NCBI GenBank assembly: GCA_008632985.1
Contig: QPGO01000050.1
Location: forward strand, 124,001 to 188,000
Direction of reading: 5' to 3'
Source: Psammoneis japonica
Taxonomy: Eukaryota
Length of the DNA stretch: 64,000 nt
Below the pieces are notes generated by a model, which saw only the letters and a list, made by a program, of their open reading frames with translations, did no database searches and was not told where the DNA came from. Positions 14,266-28,529 of the stretch are shown one piece after another; the stretch's first letter is position 1; each line of letters begins with the position of its first letter. A program made the position numbers and the translations under genes.

Positions 14266-16049
14266 ATGAACATGTTACGGCGAATGAGCCGGTCTCAGCC
14301 AAAGGACGGCATCAGCGTGTTGAGTCAGGAGTCTTCCGCGGTGTCATCGGAAGAAAGGGAGTTGTCTGAAGTGTTGGAGTGCGTCGAGAAAGAAATAAGC
14401 GACGCGAGGGCGAAGGGTGTGCACGTCGATCCCAACTGCATTTTGCGAATGACCCGTTCGGCGGTAGAAGCGGCAACGGACGACAAAAAACTCGTGGAAC
14501 TTGATGCATTGCATAAAGTACGAACGGTTGGAGATCATTCCACCCTTGTGGATGTGTTAAAGGAGGACGACGCGTTTCAGCTTAGCATTACAGTGGAAGA
14601 TTCTCCCGAAAGATCGAAGGGGACAAAAAGTCTTGGCACACCCACCAAGATTGATGATGTGTCTTCATCAACATCAGTTGATACGGAATATTCTTCGGGA
14701 TCATTGTCCGTGTCATTCATTGATACGGACTCTCTGCTTGACAGTCAGGCAGGCGGGTGGAAGACCTCCGAGGTAATTCAATCATTCCACCTGATGAATA
14801 TCAGACGTCTGACACTCGGCAGACTCCCGAAACATATTTCAGTGATGACTGCGAAACGGAGGGTGCGCACCGGCAGGAGAATACTGCTATTGAAATAACA
14901 CTTTCTTCTTTTCAGAGAGTCGAGGGTGATGCTCCTGTCGAACCGAAAGAGTCTTCAGAAGAAAGCTGTGAAGTCCTTCTAGCGACGTTTTTGGAAAGCC
15001 TGGAGAATCATGAAATATCGGTGTTGAAGGTTGAAGACCCCGAGCTCGATGAACTAAACATTGCTCTTGCAAATACAGTGGTCAAATCAACGGACGTAAC
15101 GGATGACACTGACTTTGTTTCCACCAACGACTCGAGCAAACAGAATGAAACAAGTAAAGAAACGCTCAACGTTGTATTTGTCGATGACAAAGTCCAAGTC
15201 GTGGACCGTGCGAAAAACAAGTTTGTAGAAATGGATCTCAAACAGCCTGGTGACAGGAAGCATCGTAGAGCTTTTTCTCGAACCTCCTCGAAGAACAAGT
15301 GGAAGCCTCTTGTCTCGATGAAGAAGCTGAACCGACGAAAAAAACGAAACAGGGCCCCCCTTGCTCACGATGCGTCTGAAGTCGATGTTCATGAAGTCGA
15401 TGATGATGAAGTAGAACCTTCCGAAACAGAAGAGTCGTCAGCAAAAATGCATTACGTTGTAACTGTAAGTACTCGCAGCTCTGTTACGGCTCACCAAAAC
15501 CAAACAATTCTCACGCCTCTGTCGCTTCTCGACTTCTTTTAAGTGCCACCACAAGACAAAGAAACCACGCGGCAAAGTCAGGTTTCCACCCATTGAAGAA
15601 GAGGACTACGATCTCCGGGATTCTGAATACGACTCTGATTACAGCGTCGGAGATGATTCGGAAACGGATGAGGTTGATCTCTTTGATCTGTTTGTTGAAG
15701 CGCTCGTCCAAAAGATGGAGCAAATGTGTACCCAGAAAAAATCGAGGGTAACGAGATCTACGAGGAGTCGTCACCGCGACAGGAACGCATGGCACGGTGC
15801 AGTGCTAGAGAGACGACAGCAGTCTGTTATCGACACCTTCGGAAGCAATTCACTTCTATATAAGTCAGGCATTCGTCCAGAAGAAAATCGCTTGGGGCAA
15901 GAGATTCATGTAACGTAGGCTACAATGCTACTAACATCGACGATAATGATAGCAGAGCAACAGGGTCATCCTTGACGGGACAGGACTCTGTTGTTTATGA
16001 TTTGCAGGTTGATGAAAGAACCGGAAGTCCAAAGCTTTTGCGCATGTGA
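14266..16049 (+). CDS. Hypothetical acidic/low-complexity protein, paralog of 27026-28529; intron 15465-15543; apparent frameshifts
   Basis: Shared blocks SVLSQESS..LSEVLE.VEKE, FQLSITV, DKVQV.D..N K.VEM.L, DLFDLFVEAL.QKME, TGSSLTGQ, and the same intron position. Confidence 0.65.
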
Positions 16050-16134: not shown

Positions 16135-18090
16135 CACTGTAGCTCGCAAAATTCGTAGATGCACAGTTAGAGTCCATTTCATGTATAGATGCCCACAAGG
16201 ACTGGCTGCATTCCTTTCTGCGCTGACTGCATCCCATGCATTGCACTCGTCCAGATGCACCCCATGCTTTTAAGACAGAGACCACTTGGAAATGAAAGGA
16301 AAAATTGAAAAATGACAGGCGTGTAATTTTTTTCGACAATTGGAAAGGAGAGGATGCACAATTGCCAGCCAAGACATGATGAAACTTCTAAAAGGCAGTG
16401 GGTGCCAATTGGGTGTTTGTCCAAACTCGAGAAGATTCTGCTGCTCAAATCCCCAAGGCCAGGCACACATGGATGTCAAAGGCATGCCCAATTTCTGTTT
16501 GATGTGCAAAAGCAAGTTGCACAAGAAAAAGTGGACAAAACATCAGAGCACAGCACAGCTCTGATGGCCATGGGCTCACTCAATTGAAAGACAGTGGGCA
16601 GTGTTGCACTTGGCAACATGAACTTTGTTTGCAAGGAAAATCTCACAAACGGTCAATGCCCCAATTCCACAGGTGCACGCAGATGTGGCAGAGATGGTGT
16701 CGTGCTGCATGGTTCTTCCAGAAAATGCAATGTTTGAATGACAGCAGAGATTTTGGCTGCTGTGTGATTCCCAAGCGAGCTCCTCCAGTTGGTGGCAATC
16801 AGAGAGCAAAACCCCAGAGTTGCCCTCCATCTGGAAATCATTGTTGCTCTTGTTCAGAGCTGATCTGCACTTGACAAGAAGCCTGTGTTCTCAACAAGTG
16901 AAATCTTGACAACATGAATTTTGTGCACATTTGCAATGCAATGATTTTGAATGTTGCTGTGTCAACAATTGAGCCAATCATGAAAGCTGGAGATGACAAT
17001 GAGTGGCACATGCAACTGGCCAGCTGACACAGCTCATTTCCAATGACAATCGCACAAATCGATCTCATTGGCTCTCTTTTTCATTGGCTGCATGTCGCTG
17101 ACAATGCCAACAATTTGATTTGCACATGTTGCAATTTGGGTTTCTGGCAATGTCAGCTTGATGCAGCTGCATGTTCTCATCCTCCACTTTTTTGCTCCCT
17201 TGTCTTTGCTCTTTCCTTTTTTTCTTTGTTCTTCCAGCATCTTTCACTGTCTGCATGACATCTTCTTGTTCTTGGCTGGCTGTGCTGGCACCACCATGTC
17301 ATGCTCCAACTGGCATCTACACTTCAACTGGTGTCATGCTCCCATCACTTGTCTTTCAACAATTGTCAGCTTCTTGTTCTGGTGGTGTGCATGTCGCTCA
17401 TCCTGCAAGGGAGATCAAAGCAATGCCTGCCAGAAGAAATCAGAGAAATCATGAGTTTTGCATGTTTGATTTGGCAGCTCTCTCACAATCATGCTGCCTC
17501 CACTGACACTTGTGCTGCAACATTGCAGCATTGTGTTTCCTGCTTGCACAACTCACTTTAATTTGTCTGGGTGTCATGGATGAGTGAAAGTGCCTGTTTT
17601 TTTGCATTGTTCTGAAATCTGCTTGCTTTTGCAGACACTTCTGATCTTTCATTTTTCTCATTGCTTTTTTTGTTTGGGTGTGTGCAGCCCTTGGTTTTGT
17701 TGGTGCTTTCCCACAATGCATGATTGCACACAGGATGCTTGGGCACATCCTCTGCATTTTGTGTTGTTTTTTGTGTGGCAGCAATGATGCATTTTTTGGT
17801 GCAATGCCAAGCTGCCAGTGGGCTTGGTGGTCATTGTTTGCATCATTTTGCTGGCAGCATTTTTTCAAAAGCCTTTCATTTTGTGTGCTCTCAAAGTCTG
17901 TTAAATTGTTTGGGTTGACTTGAATGAACCAGTCAATTGGTCTTTGTTGTCACAGCATTTCAGTTGGTGGGCCTGTGAGCTGTCATTTGCTCAGCAGCTG
18001 GACATTGAACATTGTTTCAATCACATGCAACACATCATCTTTTGTCAAAGAAGCTTTTTGTGCCATCTCAGTTTTCACAAAATTCAACTT
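16135..18090. mobile_element. Degenerate repeat DNA of unassigned family at the left end of the TE block
   Basis: Switch to TpA/CpG-poor, TG/CA-rich sequence from ~16200. No intact ORF. Begins CACTGTAG, a possible TIR end, but no partner was found. Confidence 0.5.
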
Positions 18091-19950
18091 CTCTAAACTC
18101 CACACTGAAAGCCACCACCAAGCCAACAGCTGCAAGCTGAGGGCACTGGGCTGACAGTGTCCAGTGGTGTGTCCCAGGTGACACTTTCAGAGCTGTGGCT
18201 GAGCATTGCAAGGTTGATCTTGTGGCATTGTGCCCCTGTGTCATGTCATGCAAAAGAGTGGCAGACTTGAACTTGCAAACTCACTCCAGAGTGAAAGGAA
18301 GATCTCCCCATGAGACAGTGCCCACCAAACCACAAAACTGCCCACAGAAGACACTGGTGGCAGCATCTGGTGGACCTGGGGTGAGACTTCAAGAGCTGTT
18401 GTTGTGCATTGCAAGGTTGATCTTGTGGTGTTGTGGCAGCACCATGTCATCTTGTCCCCAAGAACAGGAGCAGACTTGAACTTTCAAACTCCAGAGTGAA
18501 AGAAGGGCCCCATGACAGCACCAACCAACCTGACCATCATTGCAAGATGAGGGCACTTGAAGTGTGTGGTGTGCCCCATGTGACTGCTTTAAGAGCTGTG
18601 CTTGAGCATTGCAAGGTTGATCTTGTGGTGCTGTGGCCTCACATCATGTTGTCCCCAACAGCAGACAGCAGATGAGTCTCCATGCAGAGACCATCACAGG
18701 AGCCAAAAAACTGGTGTCATGATGTCGGTGCTGCATGCTGTCATTGTTCTTGTGAGCCAAGTGGCTTGAAAGCAAACTGCATCGCACAACGCGCATGGAA
18801 CCAAGAGCACACACAATATGTGTGACAAACTAAAATCTTGTTCAAATCCTGTCACCAGCAGACTTGACTTTCCCAACTCCAGGAGTGCAGGGATCCCACA
18901 CCAGTGGCACCAACCAACCCAACAACTGACACCAGCAGAGGGCACCACTGGTTGTCTTTGGTGTGCCCCAGGTGACACTCCAACCATGGTTGGCTGAGCA
19001 TTGCAAGGTTGATCTCATGCGGCATTGTGGCCCTGTGTTGTGCTCTGCCCAATGACTGCTGCAGACTTTGACTTCCAAGCTCCCAAATGCAGCAAGTCTG
19101 ACCAGCCAATCTAACAACTGCAAGCTGAGGGCACTGGTGGTCTGCAGCAGATCCCAGGTGACAGTTTAAGAACTTTGGCTGGATGCTGCAAGGTTGCATG
19201 TTGTGGTGTTGTGGCCCCATGCCACCTTCTCCCCAACAGGAGTGCACAGACTTGAGCTTCCAAGCTCTGGAGTGAAATGTTCCCATGACAGTGCCAGCAG
19301 AGGACACTGAAGGTGTCTGCTGACAGACCCCAGGTGACACTTCAAGAGTTGTTGTTTGGGCACTTCAAGAGGTTGTTGGCACTGCGGCATTGTGGCTTGT
19401 TGTCACCTTGTTCCCAAACAGGAGGAGCAGACTTGAGCCCCCAAACTCCAGAGTGAAAGGACCCCATGACAGTGCCAACCAACCTGACAATTGTTGGGCA
19501 TCATTGCAAGGTTGACCTTGTGGTGCTGTGGCTCCATGTCTCTTCAGCCCCACAGGAGCAGACTTGAACTTGTTCCAAACTCCAGAGTGAAAGGAGCCCA
19601 CCATGACAGCACCCACCAACCTGACAACTGCAAGCTGAGGGCATTGGTGGTCTCTGGTGGAACCAAGGTGGCAGTTTGAGAACTGTGGTTGGATGTGGCA
19701 AGGAAGGTTGATGTTGTGGTGTTGTGGCCACATGTCACCTTGTGCCCAACAGCAGCAGACTTGAACTTCCAAACTCTCAAGTGAAACAACCCTGCGACAG
19801 TGCCAACCAACCCAACAACTGCAAGCTGAGAACATTGGCAGCCTCTGCTGGACCAAAGGCAACAGTTTAAGAGCTGCAGCTGGACATCGCACTGAGGTTG
19901 ATGTTGTGGTGTTGTGGCCCCATGTCACCTTGTCTCCGCCAGGAGCAGAA
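18090..19950. repeat. Degenerate tandem array, about 9 units of ~185-203 bp, with an unrelated ~170 bp interruption (~18680-18850)
   Basis: Recurring GCATTGCAAGGTTGATCTTGTGG-like motif at 18203, 18406, 18606, 18998, ~19183, 19501, ~19700, ~19890. Recurring GCAGACTTGAAC...AAACTCCAGAGTGAAA-like motif in each unit. Confidence 0.88.
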
Positions 19951-19959
19951 ACAAGAATG

Positions 19960-22700
19960 TGTGCACATGGCTCATCATCAAGTCAATCTGGACAGCATGA
20001 CATGTCAACTGCAGCTCCCACTTTCCTCAACAATCCAAGGATGGAGTCAACAATGCATCTTCCTGCCTGTTGGCACAGCAAGGTGGTGCATTCATTCCAG
20101 CTCTGGGCACAATTTGATGTTTTTTTTTCACATTCTCTGCCTTTTTTGCAAATGCTGCCATCTTTGTCAACACAACCTGCTTGCTCTTTGGACTCTGGTG
20201 CTGGAGGTGTGATGTGATGCTTTTTGTCACAGCACATCTGAAAATGATTGGCAACTCTGACAAATTCAGCAATGATGCAGGCCCTTTGCCATTGGGAAAA
20301 GAGCCATTGGTGTGGAAGGTTCCTGTGCTGGTGACTCTCCAACCAACTGATTTCCTCCAACATGTGTTTGTTCTACAGCGGCACCTGGCACAGGCAAAAC
20401 TGACTGCAACAGCGCCGCAGCTCCACGGAAGCTTGGGCTCAATGGGTTGACTGTGTGTGCCAAAAGATTGACTTTGGAGTCTGGATTCCATGACTCAATG
20501 TTCTTGTTGAAGCAAACCCAGAGCACCTCTCAGCAGCCAGCCATTTCTGGCTCCAGCCAGAAGTGTTCCTCAGTTCCACATTCTCTGTGCTGTGGCAAAC
20601 ATCACAATTTTTTCTCAATGTGGCTGTCATGTTCCATGTGGAATGACATGATTTGCAAGTTGCCATGGGGTGGTGTGCGGTTGTTTTTTTGCAACTTCTC
20701 TCAACTTTGTGGCTGCAAAAGTGGCACCAATTCATGATGTGAAGCAGGTGTGACATGTGTGATGAAGAAAATGGCATGCTTGATTTCACAATTGCAGCAT
20801 TTGATCCATCAAAATCAGTGCTCATTGTTCATGTGTGATTTTCTCCCATTGTGGCATCATGTTCCAGCACCTTTTTCCCAGCTTCTGCTCAGCTGCATCT
20901 GTGTCAACAAAATTCTGAACATTCTAGAAAATTGGGTGCCAACTTGTCTCATGACCCCAACTTGTCTCATGACCAGCTGTGCAAAACATGGTGTTGCACA
21001 TCCATCACACTCAAACTCAAGGACCACAATGATTGGCAAGCGCTGTTTGTGGCATCAATCAACATTGTTTGCCTCTCCTGGGTCATGTTGCACAGCAGAA
21101 TCACATTCAATGTGTCGCTCACTTTGACCCATTCAACCATGCATTGTTCAATGACGGAACCATCTCTCAACAAGCTTGAAAGTTCAATGGTCACTTGAAT
21201 GCTGTGGGTTGTGTGTGTTGAGTTAGAGAGCTGTCAGCACCATTTTGGTGGAGCTGCAAGACAGCACGTTGGCAACACTTGTCATGGTGCACCCTCTTTT
21301 GATGTTTTCCAGCAGTGCTTTTTGCAGTTCCCCCACAAAGTCCAGATGGAGCTGATGTGTGTGGCACTTGTTCCCCCAGACAAAAATGCAGCAGGAGCAC
21401 CCCAAAATGCAGGCAATCAAATGGAAGGTTTTCCAACCACATGAACAAATTCTCAACAAAATCAAAACTCACATGATGAGAGATTGCACATTTTGAAGCC
21501 ATTTCAACCCTCATCTGTGGACATTGATCACTGCAGAGAAAATGCCAGAGATGTGCAATTTTCAACAGGCAACCACAATGAAATCATTCAAGAATCAAGC
21601 GACAGAACAAAGCACAGTTGATGTTTGTGAAAATTGTGTGTTGGTGGAAATTGCAGCCACAAGTGTGAAAATCATTGTTGTTGTTCATTGTTCTTCTGTA
21701 AAGTGCAAAAACATCATGTTGCAGATGCCAACATTGCTTCTCACTCCCATGCCAAAATTGCTGCCTGAAGCAGCTTGAGCACCAGCCCCATGTCATGGAG
21801 ATCTGCAGGATGACATTTGGCCATGTTGCCACAACAGTTTTCCAAGAAGCACTGGGGGGGGAGGGGGGGGGGGGGGCACACCTGACAATCACAGCAGCCT
21901 TTCCAGGTGCAGCAGTGGCAACAAGGCATGGCAAAAGCTGATCATCTGTTTGCACAGCTTTTGTTTCCAGGAGGGGGGAGCCAACAGTTGCAGCACCACT
22001 GTCTCCAATTGGCCCAGTGCTGCTTGCTGCCACCTTGCACATGCCTGCTGACATTGCAAGTGGTGCACAATGCCACACACCTTGCTGAGCCTTTTTTTCC
22101 TGCTTTGCTGCTCACAAGTTGCAGAATGGCTGCCACCAGTGCATGCCATCTTTTGCTTTGGAGCCAGCCCTTGCTGCTGCAAAGCAGAAGCAAGGTCATG
22201 TGTTCTTGGAGCTTCTCCAATTCATTTGTGAAATGGCTGCTTCCAAGAGCAAGCGTCTTGCTCCTCTGCTCTGCAATGCTGTGACAAAGGCTTGGTTTCT
22301 CAAAAGCTGTTGAGCTGGCTGAACAAGAAAGGAGCTTCAGCTTCTCATGCTGCTGCACACCAGTTTGGGAATGTCAGGGCACATCATTCCAGGTGCTCAC
22401 CAAAGAAACAAAGGGCCTGCAGCACTTTGTCAACAAAGTGCCATTGTCATTTGTCCTTGAGTTGTTTGGCAGCACAGCACATTTTGGCTCAAAAGTGTGC
22501 TGGGCCCTGCTCTCTTTTTCTCACAGGGTGCAGTCCAGGTGGGTTGCACCAGCACACTCCACGCTCCTTGATTGGCTGCTGCTGTGTGGACACCCCCCCC
22601 CCAGCACCCCCTCCAGCCACAGCAACTTTGCTGTCATGCATTCATTGGTGCCAAGCTGTTCAAAAGTGCCTTTTTCTTGCTCAAAACCACCATGAAGTCT
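19960..22700 (-). mobile_element. Mutator-like (MULE) DDE transposase relic, pseudogenised
   Basis: Ordered minus-strand motifs MLIDATN..SLSVMD (~21060), STDFD....I...MP....H..LLH (~20820), NKNIESWN (~20500), then a Cys-rich possible SWIM remnant (~20080). Limits approximate; 21600-22700 assigned only by contiguity. Confidence 0.65.
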
Positions 22701-22749
22701 GCCAAGCCAAATGGACATCATTGGAGTTTTTTGCTTGGCAAGAGTTGGG

Positions 22750-25700
22750 TGTCTGGGGTGACAGAAGTGGGTGGTGGGTGGTGACTGGTGGTGGGAAAAT
22801 GGTGCACAGCTTGCTGGGCGGTGAAAAGAAAAAAGATTGGCCAATGGTGCAGACAGACAGCTGTGTGGCAGATGCATTGGTTAAAGTTGGGTGTCTTCAA
22901 GTCTGCAGAGGAGTTGCTGATGGTTGGACAAATGGGTGGAGAGGGCGATGATGCCAATGTTGAGGCTGAGGATCTGAGAGGCCCATGGAAGGGGTGCAGG
23001 AGAGATGAGATGGGAGTCACCAAAGTGGTCAGGGGAGATTTTGTTTCCAGGCAATGTTGGCAGCCACTGGCAAGAAGGTTGCGGAAGGTGCCAGAAAGGA
23101 GTTTTGGCATGCTGAAAAAGAGGCTTGGGAGTGGGGCAGATCAGATGGGCTTGTCCAGGGTGGTTTGGGTGGAAGGGGAGGAATGGAGGAGGATTGAGCA
23201 GCGGAGTGACCAAAGAAGAAAACATGAAAGTGGCACCCAATGCCTCCAAGGTGGTTGATGGTGAAAGGAAGAAGAGGTGAGCCAGCATTGTTGGTGGCAT
23301 TGATGATGTTGGAGCAGCAATCTGCGGATGTTGTGCAGCCAAGCGCTTGTCCCATGTGCTGCTGAGGTGAGCCTTGGCAAGTGGGATTTCAGGGGTGGGC
23401 AAACAGGGTGCAGGAGGTGGGGGAGCTGGTGGGCACAGCAACATTGATGGCAATGAACTGGTGTGTGGGGATGGGGCATCAGGAGGAGTGGAGTTGGGGA
23501 TGAGCTGTGCTCCAATGTTGGCAGAGCATTTGAGAGGGGGGTCAGTGAGGAGTCTGGTTGGATCTAGATGTGCTTCTTGTTGACAATTGCAGCACAGAAC
23601 CATTGAGAGGGCCAAGGTTTTCAATGATTGTGTGGAGGGTGTCATGGAGATGGTTTGACAGGGAGCCTTTGCACATTTTGGAGCAGGTGAAAGCATGGCC
23701 ACCACATGGGTTTGGTTGAGCATGGCCACAGGGACATTCGGCGTGGAGAAAATCAGAGGAGATGGTTGGAAGGCAGAGCTTGCAGAGAAGAAGGAGGGTG
23801 AAAAGGGCAGAAGGGAGTCATCAATTGGGTGGGTGAAGTCTTGAGAGGGAGTGAAGGCACAAACTTGCAAGGGGAGAGAGCAGGGATGGAAGAGCTGGTT
23901 GGATGGCAGGGTCTGCAAGAAGTTGAGGGAGAGTGTTGTGTTTGTGATGGTGAAGATGGAGCTGTTGGGAGAGACCATGGAGGTTGTGGTGCTTGATGGG
24001 AGTCAGAGGCATTTGAATGATGGGGAGTTGCATTGGAAGAGGACAGGGGCACAGTGCTTGAAGATGGTGCAGAGGAAAAGGTCAGAGCATGGGTTGGACC
24101 AGGAGCCAAGGGTGGTGGATTGGCTCAAGGGGAGGTGAAAGAGCTGGTTGCCAGTTGGCGGCATTCCGTGTGTGGCGCAACGGATGGAGTGGGCAAGGGA
24201 GGTGAGGATGGGATGGCAACACTGGAAATGTCTTGGTGTCCAATGCTGCCAAGAGAGACTGGGAGGATGGCAACAAGATGGGTGGCAGTTGGAAGAGGTG
24301 CAGTTGTTTTGGTGAGACAAGCAAGAAAAAGGAGGGAGTGGCCAACAATGGCATCCATAAAAGGGGGTGCCCATTCAAAAGGGCTGGGGCAGTTGGTGTT
24401 GTGTTTGAGATTGCAGCAGATGTCCACTGCAAGAAAGTGTGAAATGGACGGCATTGTGCATTTCCGAAAGAAGGCACTTTGAGTTTGTTTGTTGGTTGGT
24501 CGAGTGGTGAGGCAGCGGAGTTGTTTGGCAAAAGTGTTGGCTTTGTTGGCAAGAAAGTCAGCAGCAAATTCAACAGAGCCAATTGGTTGGCCAAGAAAGT
24601 GGATGCTGGCAGCAATCTTGGGTTGTGTGTGTGGGTGGTTGGTTGGGTTGAGGAAAAGCAGGGCTTGATTTGAGGTCTCAGTGTCGGCGTTGGTGGGAGA
24701 GAGCTTGTCAATTGGAGATTGGCTGTTGATGAGTGCAAGGATTTTGGTCTTGGACCTGTTGAGTTTGATGCCACATTGGGGTCCCAAGTTTTTGTGGGAA
24801 CTGTGGGAAAGTGGAGAAAGGAAGAAAGGCATGGGTGTTGTTGATGCAAGACGAGGTGGCCAATTTTGAGTGTGCTGGAAGGCATTGGTGGAGTTTGCCA
24901 TTCTTGATGGGTTTGAAAACACAAGCAAGGATGAGGCAGGAGAAGGCTGGACTTCAAGGACAGCCCTGTGTGAATCCTTTGTGTTGAAAGAAGGAGGGCC
25001 AATCAAGGTGGTGGTCTTGATGCCAACATGTGTTGGGATCTTGGCACAGGATGTTGAAGAGAGGAAGAGTGGGTTTGTGGTTGTCGGAGGATGCAAGGGT
25101 GTTGTGGAAGGCGTTGTGAGAGCATTCGTTGAAACAGTTGGTGAGGTCAAGCAAAACCAGGGCTTTTGCAGGGGTGGTGCCTGGGTCAAAGAAGCATTCA
25201 ATGTCAGTGCAGGTGGTGTTTTATTTGAGGCAGTCCAGGCCGCCTTTGACACCAACACCAAATTGGCTGAACAGGAGGAGGTCAGCTGCAAATTTGGCTG
25301 CCAAAAGGAACATGACCAGTGTTCCAAGAATTTGATGAAGAGCAGTGCAAACACCAATGGGGTGGAGTTTGGAGAGGTTCATTTTGTCTTTGTGAAGGGC
25401 GAGGAAAGAGTTGGGTGCAAAGGTTGGCTTGATCGAGGGCAGGAGGTCAGCAGCAAGGATGAGGTCAAGGAGATGTTTGAAGGTTGGGAGGCAGGGGCAG
25501 GAAGTGGCTGTTGGTGCAGAGCAATGGCAAAGGGCACAGGCTTTGAAGAGGTTGGCAGAGTTGGCAAAGGGGCCTGGTGCTTTGCCGGGGTTGGCATTTG
25601 GCAAGGGCTTTGCAAAGTCAGAAGTTTGTCTGCCAGAGGGGTGCGATGGAAGTGGTGGGTGTTTGCATGGTGGGCACAGCTTTGCCACTGGAGCCATGCA

Positions 25701-26140
25701 TTCTGGAGTGAGAGAAGCAACAGGGAGGGAGGAGGTGGTGCGGGTGCAGGCTGCAGAGAGGTCACTCACATCAGCAGCAATTTAGGCTGAGTGGGTGCAG
25801 AGAATGAGTCGCAGAAATCTGGGGGCTTGTCAGAGATGGTTGGAGTGGGCACTGCTTGAGAAGAATGACAGAGGGAGCAGATGGAGCCATTGCAGAAGAG
25901 GAAAAGGTGTTGGTTGATGATGGTTGAGATTGGGATCTTGGAGTCGGGGCTTTAAGAACAAGGGAAGAGGGCTGAAAATTTGAAGAGAAAAAAGAGTTTG
26001 AAGAAAGGGGTGGAAGAAGTTTGCCAGGATGGGAGGGGCTCATCAGGGTGTTCACAAGTTTGAGATGCATTGAGCATCCACCAGACCAAATGATGAAGGG
26101 CATGGGTGACTTGCAGGTGGGCTGAGGATGGGAGCTTGTG
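22750..26140 (-). mobile_element. Non-LTR retrotransposon relic, RLE-type (CRE/NeSL-like): RT, CCHC knuckle, restriction-like endonuclease
   Basis: KAPGP, LALHKD..KLHPIGV..ALHQI, QFGVGVKGG, LDLTNCFN, GFTQGCP, CINN (=YIDD), GIKLNRSKT, FLGQPIGS, LPVSLGSIG, CPCG...P.GxH.FTC, SANIG...IAINV. Frameshifted throughout. Confidence 0.85.
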
Positions 26141-26164
26141 CCAAAGGGAGGCACAAAAGGGAGG

Positions 26165-26690
26165 ACATGCTTGTTCACAAGTGCGACACAGACCACTGAG
26201 AGGGCCAAGGGTCTCAATGATTGTGCAGAGGGTGCTGTCAGGGAGATGGTTTGACAGGGGGGCTTTGTGCATTTTAGAGCAGGCAAAAGCATGGTTGCTG
26301 CATGGGTCTGATTGAACATGGCCACAGGAACATTCGGCGTGGGGAGAAAATCGGAGGAGATGGTTGGAAGGCGGAGCTTGCGGAGAAGAAGGAGGAGGGT
26401 GAAAAGGGTGGAAGGGAGTTCATTGGATGGGTTGAGTCTTGAGAGAGAGCAAAGGCATGAACTTGCAAAGGGAAAAAGCAGGGGTGGAAGAGCTGGTTGG
26501 ATGTTGGGGTCTCTGCAAGAAGTCAAGGGAGAGTGCTGTGGTGTTTGTGATGGTGAAGATGGAGCCGTCGGGAGAGACCATGGAGGTTGTGGTGATCAAC
26601 AGAGTGTCGGAGGGATTCGAATGATGGGGAGTCACATCGGAAGAGGACAGGGGCGAAGTCTGCTCAGAAGAGTTGGGGGCTCTCTCATTT
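26165..26690 (-). mobile_element. Second fragment of the same retrotransposon family (zinc-knuckle region), matching ~23575-24065
   Basis: Visible nucleotide alignment, e.g. CATGGCCACAGG.ACATTCGGCGTGG and GTGTTTGTGATGGTGAAGATGGAG in both places. Confidence 0.85.
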
Positions 26691-26711
26691 TTTCCCTTCT
26701 CCACTGGCCAG

Positions 26712-26775
26712 TCTAGAGTTAGCTAGCTACTGCTAGCTCTAGCAGCTAGCAGTAGCTAGTGGCTAAAGTAGAGTG
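26712..26775. other. CTAG/TAG-rich island at the right edge of the TE block
   Basis: TCTAGAGTTAGCTAGCTACTGCTAGCTCTAGCAGCTAGCAGTAGCTAGT directly follows >400 bp without a TpA. Confidence 0.7.
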
Positions 26776-27025
26776 GCACTGGGCGCACAACAATGAGCTG
26801 AAACACGTATGACAGGCAGACAGGTGCCGGGACCCAAAAAGAAATCATACAGTTTTCCAATGCTGAAAATGTGTATATCCCAACGGAGATTATACTTTTA
26901 TCCACATGCTTAGACTTTTCATATTTGAAATTTTGAAATTTTTGCCAACGGAAGAAGATACCGTTGTCCCACCCTGGCAAGAAGAACAAAATTTCCATTT
27001 TGCGTGGCGGAGGGTTAGACAGAAG

Positions 27026-28529
27026 ATGCTACGACGGCGATTCCATCGGTCTCACCCATGGGACCACAGAAGCGTGTTGAGTCAGGAGTCTTCCGTTGTG
27101 TCATTGGGAGAAACAACGTTGTCTGAAGTCTTGGAGTCCGTCGAGAAAGAAATGGGCGAGGGGAGGGCGAAGGGGGGGCATCATGTCGATGACGACTACA
27201 TTCTACAGAGAACCCATTCGGCGGCAGAAATATCAGCGGATGAAAAAAAACTTTTAGAACTTGGTACACCTCACAAAGTAAGTACATTTAGAGATGACTC
27301 CACCTGGGTTGATGTGAAGAAAGAGGACGGAACGGGAACGTTTCATCTGAGCATTACCGTCACAGATGGTCCGAAAAATACCAGGGAGCCAAGTCCCGGC
27401 ACGTCAGATATACGCTGGCATGATAGCAATGCTTTTGAAATGACTCCATCTTTTGCGGAAGAAATCGCTGATACCGATCCATTTGTAGTTGACAAGGTCC
27501 AAGTCAAGGACTCGTTGAACAACAAGCTTGTTGAAATGGAGTTAGAAAAGACTGACCGCCAAAAGCATCGTGATATGTTCTCTTCCACGAAGCTTGGTGA
27601 TTTCCATAAAGGAGGAAATGTTGGAGGGCAGTCTACTATGGCGCATTTGAAGAGGAAGGACGAAGGGTTTCAGCTGAGCGGTACAACGAAAGTTGCTCCC
27701 GAAAGAACTACCAAGATTTCAAGTCCCGGTTTGTCAGATATAGGCCGGTTCGATTGTAACGCCTTTGAAATGACTCCACTTTTTGTCAAGAAAATCGCTA
27801 GTACCGACACATCTGTAATCGAAAGAGTCCAGGTCAAGGACTCGGCCAACAACAAGATTGTAGAAACGGAATTCGAGCAAACGGGAACCCATAGGCAGCG
27901 TGATAGGTTCTCTGTGAGACCTGCAATTGGCAAGCGGGAGCCTTTCTTTTCCATGCGGAAGTTGAACAGAAACAAAACGAGAGACAATTCTCCTCCTGTC
28001 CAGGACATTCGTGAGATCAACACTCATGATATAGACCCTCATGACGACGAGAAACTCATAAAAGTTCCGGTAGAGCCGACCCCAAGAAAGACACGATACA
28101 TTGTAATCGTAAGTGCTTGTTGCTACCAGGACTAGCTTTGTTTGTCAGGTAACTCTCACTCCTCCCATTTTTCTCCTCGCTAAGCGTCGCAAAAAGAAAG
28201 GGGGATACGACTTTCGAGATGAGGAAGACGATTCAGAAATGGAAGAGTATGATCTCTTTGATCTCTTTGTGGAAGCGCTCATTCAGAAAATGGAGCACTT
28301 GTGTTCAACGGACGAGAAGTCTGTTCCACCTTCAACCCGAAACCCCCCAAACAGGGATTCAGCGCTCCTGATGGACTTGCACGACGTTCTGCTCGACAAA
28401 TTAGGTATTGCAGTGGAAGAAGATCGCTTTGCGTGTGAGATACATGCATGCTTTGACGAAAATAGCGACACAACCGGATCCTCGTTGACTGGACAGAACT
28501 CTTATGTTTCATGGGTTGCGGCTCATTGA
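27026..28529 (+). CDS. Hypothetical protein, paralog of 14266-16049, with an internal ~80 aa duplication; intron ~28109-28184
   Basis: Open frames in both exons. Internal repeat F.LS.T...SPG.SDI...D.NAFEMTP.F...IA.TD..V...VQVKDS.NNK.VE occurs twice. Confidence 0.75.

Follow-up and report, generated by a model that had tools for sequence, protein, structure and literature searches.

Identity and anatomy of the retrotransposon

The DNA considered here is a stretch of 64,000 nucleotides from Psammoneis japonica (GenBank assembly GCA_008632985.1, contig QPGO01000050.1, positions 124,001 to 188,000 of the forward strand), referred to below as the window. Its minus strand carries a decayed copy of a non-long-terminal-repeat (non-LTR) retrotransposon of the restriction-like endonuclease (RLE) type, and in the reverse transcriptase (RT) of this copy the catalytic YxDD box reads Cys-Ile-Asn-Asn. 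The box, its probable ancestor and the mutations that separate the two are the subject of this analysis. The principal features of the copy are the following:

22725..26167, minus strand: main copy, RLE-type non-LTR retrotransposon; 5'-truncated, frameshifted and with stops (profile positions 110-1203 of 1227)
26167-25829, minus strand: profile match, E 8e-17
25796-24900, minus strand: profile match, E 1e-83
24793-24050, minus strand: profile match, E 2e-42
23997-22987, minus strand: profile match, E 9e-33
24957..24977, minus strand: RT motif GFTQGCP (family consensus EGFxQGCPLSP), with an in-frame TGA next to it at 24956-24954
24837..24848, minus strand: dead YxDD box, C-I-N-N, aligned to SYLDDT of the relative P0008 and, in 22 relatives, to the YxDD columns
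24746..24772, minus strand: RT motif GIKLNRSKT (family consensus GIxLNxxKT), in a frame different from that of the YxDD box (frameshift between)
23683..23736, minus strand: CCHC zinc-knuckle region of the endonuclease module, CPCGHAQPNPCGGHAFTC (family consensus CxCxxxxDxxGDHxFxC)
23443..23445, minus strand: endonuclease Asp, now AAT (Asn) in AINV (family column 1034, 100% Asp; CpG>CpA)

The copy is recognized because it is homologous to proteins whose RT motifs are intact. P0001, a translation that reads through the RT frame and replaces its two stops by X, served as query in an exhaustive phmmer search; this returned 286 relatives at E<=1e-3, 113 at <=1e-10 and 22 at <=1e-30, the best at E 2.9e-56 and 42% identity. 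A profile of 22 relatives, used in an hmmsearch of the six frames, maps the main copy from 26167 to ~22890 and matches the RT at 25796-24900 with the E-value listed above. The 3' end is approximate, placed by a short A-run and the end of a C-rich skew. At the other end the N-terminal finger region (approximately the first 110 profile positions) is missing. The copy is thus 5'-truncated and, for that reason, was probably dead on arrival.

Pfam assigns no family to the seven single-frame open reading frames (ORFs) of the element, and P0001 matches RVT_1 at E 2.1e-4 with 21.5 bits, under the cut-off of 29.6. Of the 12 relatives scanned, 11 match RVT_1 at E<=1e-3, eight of them above the cut-off, and no other family. 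None of the 1074 scored candidates passed in a word-index homologue search of a 186-amino-acid frame against longer proteins. All three sense frames are open for 274-417 codons at 22881-26595 of the minus strand. These long open frames are artefacts of composition and not genes: a sequence that lacks TA can hardly contain TAA or TAG, and the strand is poor in G.

Full-length relatives have 1200-1300 amino acids and contain an N-terminal Cys/His finger, the RT and the motifs CxC..D..GDH..C and RPAD...D.T. Their N-termini show a Cys2-His2-like pattern, and in the 12 relatives Pfam found no N-terminal apurinic-type endonuclease. A profile search of the PDB with 18 relatives gave R2 retrotransposon proteins as the best matches (5e-8, RT core only). 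The C-terminal module, modelled from 31 loci at a predicted local distance difference test (pLDDT) score of 83, has R2 proteins as its first seven fold matches (E 2e-3 to 5e-2, prob 0.66-1.00); cap-snatching endonucleases of the PD-(D/E)xK type come next. All 31 loci share its C, C, H, C, E, D, D and K without exception. Support for the RLE fold is moderate, as no fold match reaches E<=1e-3. These results point to an R2-like non-LTR retrotransposon with the order zinc finger, RT, CCHC and restriction-like endonuclease. The RLE clade named in the preliminary description of this DNA holds, as R2 is the best match in the PDB profile search and the CCHC and RLE module matches R2 folds. In the window copy the cysteines and the histidine of the CCHC region are retained, whereas Asn and Gly have taken the place of its conserved Asp residues.

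The YxDD box and its ancestral state

On the minus strand the box consists of TGC (24848-24846), ATC (24845-24843), AAC (24842-24840) and AAC (24839-24837). GFTQGCP (24977-24957) lies ~36 codons upstream in the same frame, which bears out the preliminary description both in the exact bases, TGC ATC AAC AAC, and in a distance given there as about 35 codons. In BLASTP of P0001 against the relative P0008, S-C-I-N-N-T stands opposite S-Y-L-D-D-T (E 2e-49), and the MAFFT alignment gives the identical register. The register rests on BLASTP and MAFFT because hmmalign stopped short of this stretch, giving no alignment of the window across profile positions 545-593, YxDD box included. Homology, this register and the R2 matches all support the earlier view that the site is the YxDD box of a non-LTR RT of the RLE type. 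The catalytic box is not intact, and the window copy is a dead member of the RT family, not a working enzyme.

The state of the box in relatives was counted in 150 proteins aligned to the family profile, where it occupies columns 573-576, and in metagenome loci. The two Asp columns are nearly invariant, with D in 82/83 proteins at the first and in 80/83 at the second, and DD is present in all 72 loci that cover the box (of 80 related loci). The Tyr column holds Y in 62 of 86 proteins, the others being F 9, I 7, V 2, W 2 and N, S, T and C 1 each. Among the 72 loci Tyr occurs in 63 (TAT 33, TAC 30), Phe in five, Leu in three, Ile in one and Cys in none, and YIDD is present in 36. The preliminary description had singled out Cys or Phe in active relatives as the observation that would tell against its reading, and the locus counts favour Tyr. 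Not all database relatives are intact at the box themselves: P0036 reads FIDN, the Asp columns hold single H, N or G, and the Tyr column one Cys. The collection of proteins thus includes decayed as well as intact copies.

Given DD in 72/72 loci and Tyr in 63/72, the ancestral box was most likely TAY-NNN-GAY-GAY. Both G>A changes in the box lie behind C, since the window reads ATC|AAC and AAC|AAC. The ancestor TAC ATC GAC GAC proposed earlier is thus supported by the relatives as far as TAY, GAY and GAY are concerned; its exact codons are not provable.

An ancestor with Phe, Ile or Val at the first position, whose Cys codon would record no TpA>TpG change, finds some backing in the non-Tyr residues of the protein column and in the second- and third-best matches, P0003 and P0004, which have SVMDD at the box. 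However, Tyr predominates in both sets and is carried by the best match P0002 and by P0005-P0009. TAC>TGC is a single transition of the locally dominant class, whereas TTC>TGC or GTC>TGC requires a transversion or two changes. Moreover, not one of the 1067 in-frame codons of the copy encodes Tyr, against a median of 2.2% in relatives. A non-Tyr ancestor is therefore unlikely, and it would leave both Asp-to-Asn changes and the overall conclusion standing.

Polarised changes and their context

The direction of change was read at conserved columns, defined as those covered by at least 30 relatives with the commonest residue at >=60%, after placing 150 relatives and the in-frame window pieces on the profile. 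Of the 222 columns of this kind in the main copy, 82 differ from the relatives and the other 140 do not. A single base change accounts for the difference in 59 of the 82, distributed as follows:

CpG>CpA: 23 of 59 resolved changes
TpA>TpG: 8 of 59
CpG>TpG: 5 of 59
TpA>CpA: 4 of 59
other transitions: 8 of 59
transversions: 11 of 59

Together the four TpA and CpG classes make up 40/59 of the resolved changes, and C:G>T:A transitions are concentrated at CpG. The 17 conserved Arg columns illustrate the pattern, nine being now His or Gln, three Cys and one a stop. At Gly, Ala, Val, Asp and Glu columns whose first base is now A, that base lies behind C in 15/18 cases, compared with 3/42 where it is still G (Fisher p 1e-8). 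At Ile, Met, Thr, Asn and Lys columns whose first base is now G, it lies behind T in 7/8, compared with 0/14 where it is still A (p 5e-5). Measured against third-position base frequencies instead (C 44%, T 27%), the same contexts give binomial p values of 8e-4 and 7e-4. A rule that only TAY is targeted would suit the polarised TpA>TpG changes, of which 8/9 have a 3' pyrimidine, but a 5' pyrimidine precedes several of the TpA>CpA changes, in a sample too small to decide. In composition, too, the 1067 in-frame codons depart from the relatives, with Cys at 5.2% (1.7% in relatives), His at 6.7% (4.5%) and Arg at 1.1% (6.1%).

The nearby cases named in the preliminary description fall into the same pattern. 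FNILC, read there as a likely LY, has TGC in the window at column 496, where Tyr occurs in 101/123 relatives. KLHPIG, from KLRPIG, has CAC at column 388 (Arg 86%), and ALHQI, from ALRRI, has CAT and CAA at columns 397/398 (Arg 87%). AINV, from AIDV, is the Asp-to-Asn change at column 1034 listed above. The further prediction that conserved Tyr codons should decay almost entirely to Cys or His was followed at the seven covered profile columns in which Tyr is commonest at >=40%, plus the box. The residues at the seven columns are now C, C, S, F, C, H and H. Including the box, 6/8 are therefore Cys or His (four Cys, two His), with no stop and no Tyr, which agrees with the prediction; one Ser and one Phe do not. 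At the 60% threshold 3/4 columns fit. The column that reads Phe has Phe in 35/132 relatives, so that this residue may be ancestral.

A block depleted in TpA and CpG

The changes in the element belong to a larger domain, which is bounded on its right by a CTAG-rich sequence:

16390..26713, strand not applicable: block depleted in TpA and CpG, comprising the element and ~6 kb of other DNA (observed/expected, o/e, ratios per kb and TA map)
26714..26769, strand not applicable: CTAG-rich palindromic stretch, 11 TA in 56 bases, with an inverted repeat at 26723-26759; right block edge

The block contains 21 TA in 10.3 kb, with a TA o/e of 0.02-0.06 and a CG o/e of 0.06-0.22 per kb, and both TG and CA stand at ~1.5-2.5x expectation. 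Its edges, at 16,389 and 26,714, are sharp for both dinucleotides and enclose non-element DNA. Outside the depleted blocks the TA o/e of the window is ~0.4-0.96, and neighbouring genes have a CG o/e of ~0.8-1.2; a second depleted block occupies approximately the first 2.4 kb of the window. Within the element there are 7 TA in 4001 bases (o/e 0.03), compared with an o/e of 0.44-0.93 in the 80 related loci, and 42 CG (o/e 0.20), compared with 0.34-1.28. Per kb this amounts to 1.8 TA against a median of 53, and 10.6 CG against a median of 32, in the 59 intact ORFs of at least 900 amino acids. The element has TG at 2.17x and CA at 1.43x expectation and a GC content of 0.51.

These figures bear on whether the box could have arisen through context-free neutral decay of an old pseudogene, with C-I-N-N as a coincidence. 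Frameshifts and stops are present, and a minority of the resolved changes (19/59) falls outside the four classes. The context tests oppose it, as do the near-absence of TA in the element compared with its relatives and with the rest of the window (TA o/e ~0.5-0.9) and the approximately two-fold enrichment of both TG and CA across the block. Neutral decay is hardly credible as an explanation.

The ~6 kb of other DNA are presumably older repeat DNA (16390-22700). At 16.4-22.7 kb the loss of TA and CG matches that in the element, there is no strand skew, and the sequence has no match to the element family. Pfam found nothing credible in 21 ORFs of 16.4-22.9 kb and two host-side ORFs (a chance GM_CSF match lay below the cut-off).

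The few TA that are left have a context of their own. In the two depleted blocks (3-2400 and 16400-26700), 20/26 lie in Y-TA-R contexts (binomial p 3e-9); the corresponding share is 21% for the 2131 TA elsewhere in the window and 24-25% for CA/TG within the blocks. The minus-strand TAA at 25782-25784 stands at a Gln column (76% Gln in relatives) and so arose from CAA by C>T. Because this TAA, in the spared context C-TA-A, was newly made, residual TA are not all ancestral survivors.

Contigs of run X1 differ from the window at 15 single bases within 22500-27500, and 13 of the differences are transitions. Five are CG versus TG or CA, and the contig has the CG in 4/5. At 25106 and 25265 the contigs have TA where the plus strand of the window has TG. 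These contig TAs appear derived, as CAC>TAC and CAA>TAA on the element strand (Arg 80/132 and Gln 83/129 at the respective family columns). One contig is long (10,127 bases; 7 differences in 2,695) and extends into unique flank, so that it represents the same locus; short contigs may be paralogues.

The CTAG-rich stretch at 26714-26769 lies just outside the 5' end of the element. Beyond it, on the plus strand, is a 422-codon ORF (26867-28135) with normal TA and CG and an internal repeat, 27340-27500 resembling 27667-27830 at 71%. Part of it (27034-27379) is 74% identical to 14277-14614, and the ORF has no match in Pfam.

A second copy and the symmetry of the changes

A fragment of another copy abuts the 5' end of the main copy and forms a direct repeat with part of it:

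26170..26654, minus strand: second-copy fragment, only the part close to the CCHC and RLE (profile positions ~877-993), abutting the 5' end of the main copy
23576..24050, minus strand: part of the main copy with the upstream fragment as its paralogue; direct repeat

The fragment has profile matches at 26544-26353 and 26341-26177; the remainder of the second copy was not found. Over the repeat (26654-26170 versus 24050-23576), 409/480 aligned bases are identical (85%), and 37/71 differing columns are interchanges among TA, CG, TG and CA. They include 13 pairs of TG versus CA (seven in one direction, six in the other), 10 of CG versus TG or CA, and one of TA versus CA. The balance of 7/6 is what independent resolution of an ancestral TA or CG on either strand would give.

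This symmetry, together with the extent of the block, is pertinent to RNA editing. An ADAR-like conversion of A to I at UA in the transcript, before reverse transcription, could have given TpA>TpG; Tyr-to-Cys is a sense-strand A>G change, and a preference of ADAR for U before the edited A is mentioned in the discussion of a preprint on Bigelowiella natans (Mettrop et al., bioRxiv, 10.64898/2026.01.13.699255). However, the main copy has both products (four TpA>CpA besides eight TpA>TpG), and the TG and CA pairs between the two copies are balanced. In addition, the loss of TA covers ~6 kb of non-element DNA and ends at a sharp chromosomal edge. Editing of the transcript is consequently very improbable.

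The two copies also differ in how far the losses have gone. The upstream fragment retains 12 CG (~0.47 of expectation) and one TA, the paralogous stretch of the main copy two CG and no TA. By sub-block, the CG o/e is 0.06-0.09 at 17-23 kb and ~0.2 in the element, and the TA o/e is 0.02-0.06 throughout. To judge from these ratios, the TpA process would finish much faster than the decay of CpG. Such a difference in rate would fit hypermutation for TA and slow deamination of methylated cytosine for CG.

Strand skew of the element family

The sense strand of the element has 38.7% C and 13.5% G, and the GC skew of the plus strand is ~0.47-0.51 over 23-26 kb. This skew is native to the family and not the result of APOBEC-like editing. 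In all 80 related loci the sense GC skew of the longest ORF lies between -0.11 and -0.58 (median -0.34), and the median is -0.32 for the 59 loci whose ORFs run uninterrupted for at least 900 amino acids. Residues encoded by GNN are scarce in intact relatives as well (median 23.7%). Strand-asymmetric G>A (and T>C) hypermutation was rejected as the source of the skew, since none of the 80 related loci is without it.

In its specific form, with APOBEC-like G>A on the sense strand (in first-strand complementary DNA or exposed single-stranded DNA) producing both the Asp-to-Asn changes and the skew, this explanation would account for a C-rich, G-poor sense strand and for the many conserved Asp, Gly, Glu and Arg altered by G>A. 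It is made most unlikely by skew of the same sign in 80/80 related loci and by GNN-poor intact relatives, by the tie of G>A to a 5' C (15/18 changed versus 3/42 retained), and by the flank at 16.4-22.7 kb, which shows the same loss of TA and CG without any skew. An acquired strand-asymmetric excess of sense G>A is thus not found; the skew is native and G>A is bound to CpG. The native skew of the family must not be taken for editing of the APOBEC type.

Two probable transition processes

The reading that best accommodates these observations, and that is very likely correct, is that C-I-N-N represents the inactivated YxDD box of a decayed retrotransposon copy, rewritten by two dinucleotide-specific transition processes. 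After insertion, the copy and its 10.3-kb neighbourhood would have been subjected to two processes acting on DNA and symmetrically on both strands. The first would convert TpA to TpG or CpA (A:T to G:C); it would account for the loss of ~97% of TA and for the replacement of the Tyr codon TAY by TGC. By the second, CpG would become TpG or CpA (C:G to T:A); approximately three quarters of CG would have been lost in this way, and two Asp codons, C|GAY, changed into C|AAC. One TpA>TpG and two CpG>CpA changes, as suggested in the preliminary description, would thus yield the box, and the context statistics of the whole element support that account. The proposal that TpA was lost after inactivation stands with regard to polarity, which is given by intact relatives; the timing, deduced from the 5' truncation, is reasonable, and inactivation would have come first.

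Several points weigh against the two-process reading or limit it. The ancestral codons are reconstructed and never observed, which puts an exact TAC ATC GAC GAC beyond proof, and there is no base-by-base DNA ancestor because the closest relatives are only ~42% identical in protein. Tyr is absent at the box column in 24/86 relatives of the protein set. The 19 of 59 resolved changes outside the four classes have already been mentioned; a further 18 of the 82 differing columns need at least two base changes and five are ambiguous, all of which were left unclassified. The 23:5 ratio of CpA to TpG outcomes at CpG is biased, as the TpG outcome at NNC|GNN boundaries is synonymous and invisible in protein. 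Finally, the present scarcity of TA and CG in the element makes the context test partly circular on the side of retained bases.

Regarding the agents, we infer that CpG loss reflects deamination of 5-methylcytosine in methylated transposon chromatin, and that the loss of TpA is the TpA-restricted hypermutation known from B. natans, possibly caused by a DNA adenine deaminase. Alternatively, a single defence targeted to a chromatin domain could mark the block, for instance through cytosine methylation, and convert both TA and CG to TG or CA, with an adenine-directed activity that belongs to the methylation machinery or is guided by it. That the sharp edges of both dinucleotides coincide, at 16,389 and 26,714, is in line with such a system. 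Against it stand two different kinetics, with a TA o/e of ~0.03 everywhere and a CG o/e that ranges from 0.06 to 0.47. A single system is thus rather improbable, and two processes remain the preferred explanation.

Comparison with known systems

In ascomycete fungi, repeat-induced point mutation (RIP) changes C to T and creates TpA, and such regional, dinucleotide-specific transitions riddle transposons with missense and nonsense codons. The window is similar in that regional, dinucleotide-specific transitions have accumulated in transposon DNA. The direction, however, is opposite, as TpA is here destroyed and G+C is not lowered. The signature of fungal RIP, namely C>T at CpA that makes TpA together with a fall in G+C, was not found.

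In animals, editing by APOBEC3 and ADAR inactivates retroelements through transitions of the deamination type and acts on one strand or on RNA. Such editing leaves strand-asymmetric footprints within the element, whereas the changes in the window are strand-symmetric, chromosomal and extend beyond the element.

The R2 protein (PDB 9nl3, 9dou, 8gh6, 8iby) has the order RT, CCHC knuckle and restriction-like endonuclease in common with the family described here. The relationship is distant, at E 5e-8 on the RT core only, fold E-values of 2e-3 to 5e-2 and ~15% identity.

Decay of methylated CpG is comparable in that CpG is converted to TpG or CpA in repeat DNA, and the genes next to it keep a CG o/e of ~0.8-1.2. 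It differs in that CpG loss co-occurs here with a second, faster process at TpA. In the diatom Phaeodactylum tricornutum, transposons are described as being under the control of DNA methylation (PMC9998398). Among the literature matches listed, none describes TpA hypermutation in diatoms.

The closest parallel is B. natans. According to the preprint, changes in that alga are nearly exclusively A>G and T>C, all at TpA, and lead to TpG or CpA depending on the strand. They were found in two integrated viral regions, with similar footprints in other foreign sequences, and the authors suggest a DNA adenosine deaminase (10.64898/2026.01.13.699255). As described there, the window has A:T>G:C changes that concentrate at TpA, with both TpG and CpA as products and restricted to particular regions (16,390-26,713 and ~1-2,400). 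The systems differ in their targets, which are integrated viral DNA in B. natans and a non-LTR retrotransposon with its neighbouring DNA in a different organism here, where the footprint is a fossil. The block in the window has also lost most of its CpG, a loss that is not reported in the sections of the preprint consulted.

A TpA-destroying mutator has so far been shown experimentally in one alga only, and the window supports the action of such a DNA mutator on retrotransposons in a second, unrelated algal lineage. Here TpA loss is complete where approximately half of the CpG survives, and the two losses share sharp borders. For annotation, depleted blocks of this kind give long stop-free frames on the strand of the element and fail Pfam thresholds, so that dead transposons are easily missed or miscalled. 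As the ancestral state of YxDD is known from hundreds of relatives, the direction of change can be read at the level of the codon, from TA to TG and from CG to CA. The finding is a clean, outgroup-polarised instance of a process described in one preprint rather than a new phenomenon.

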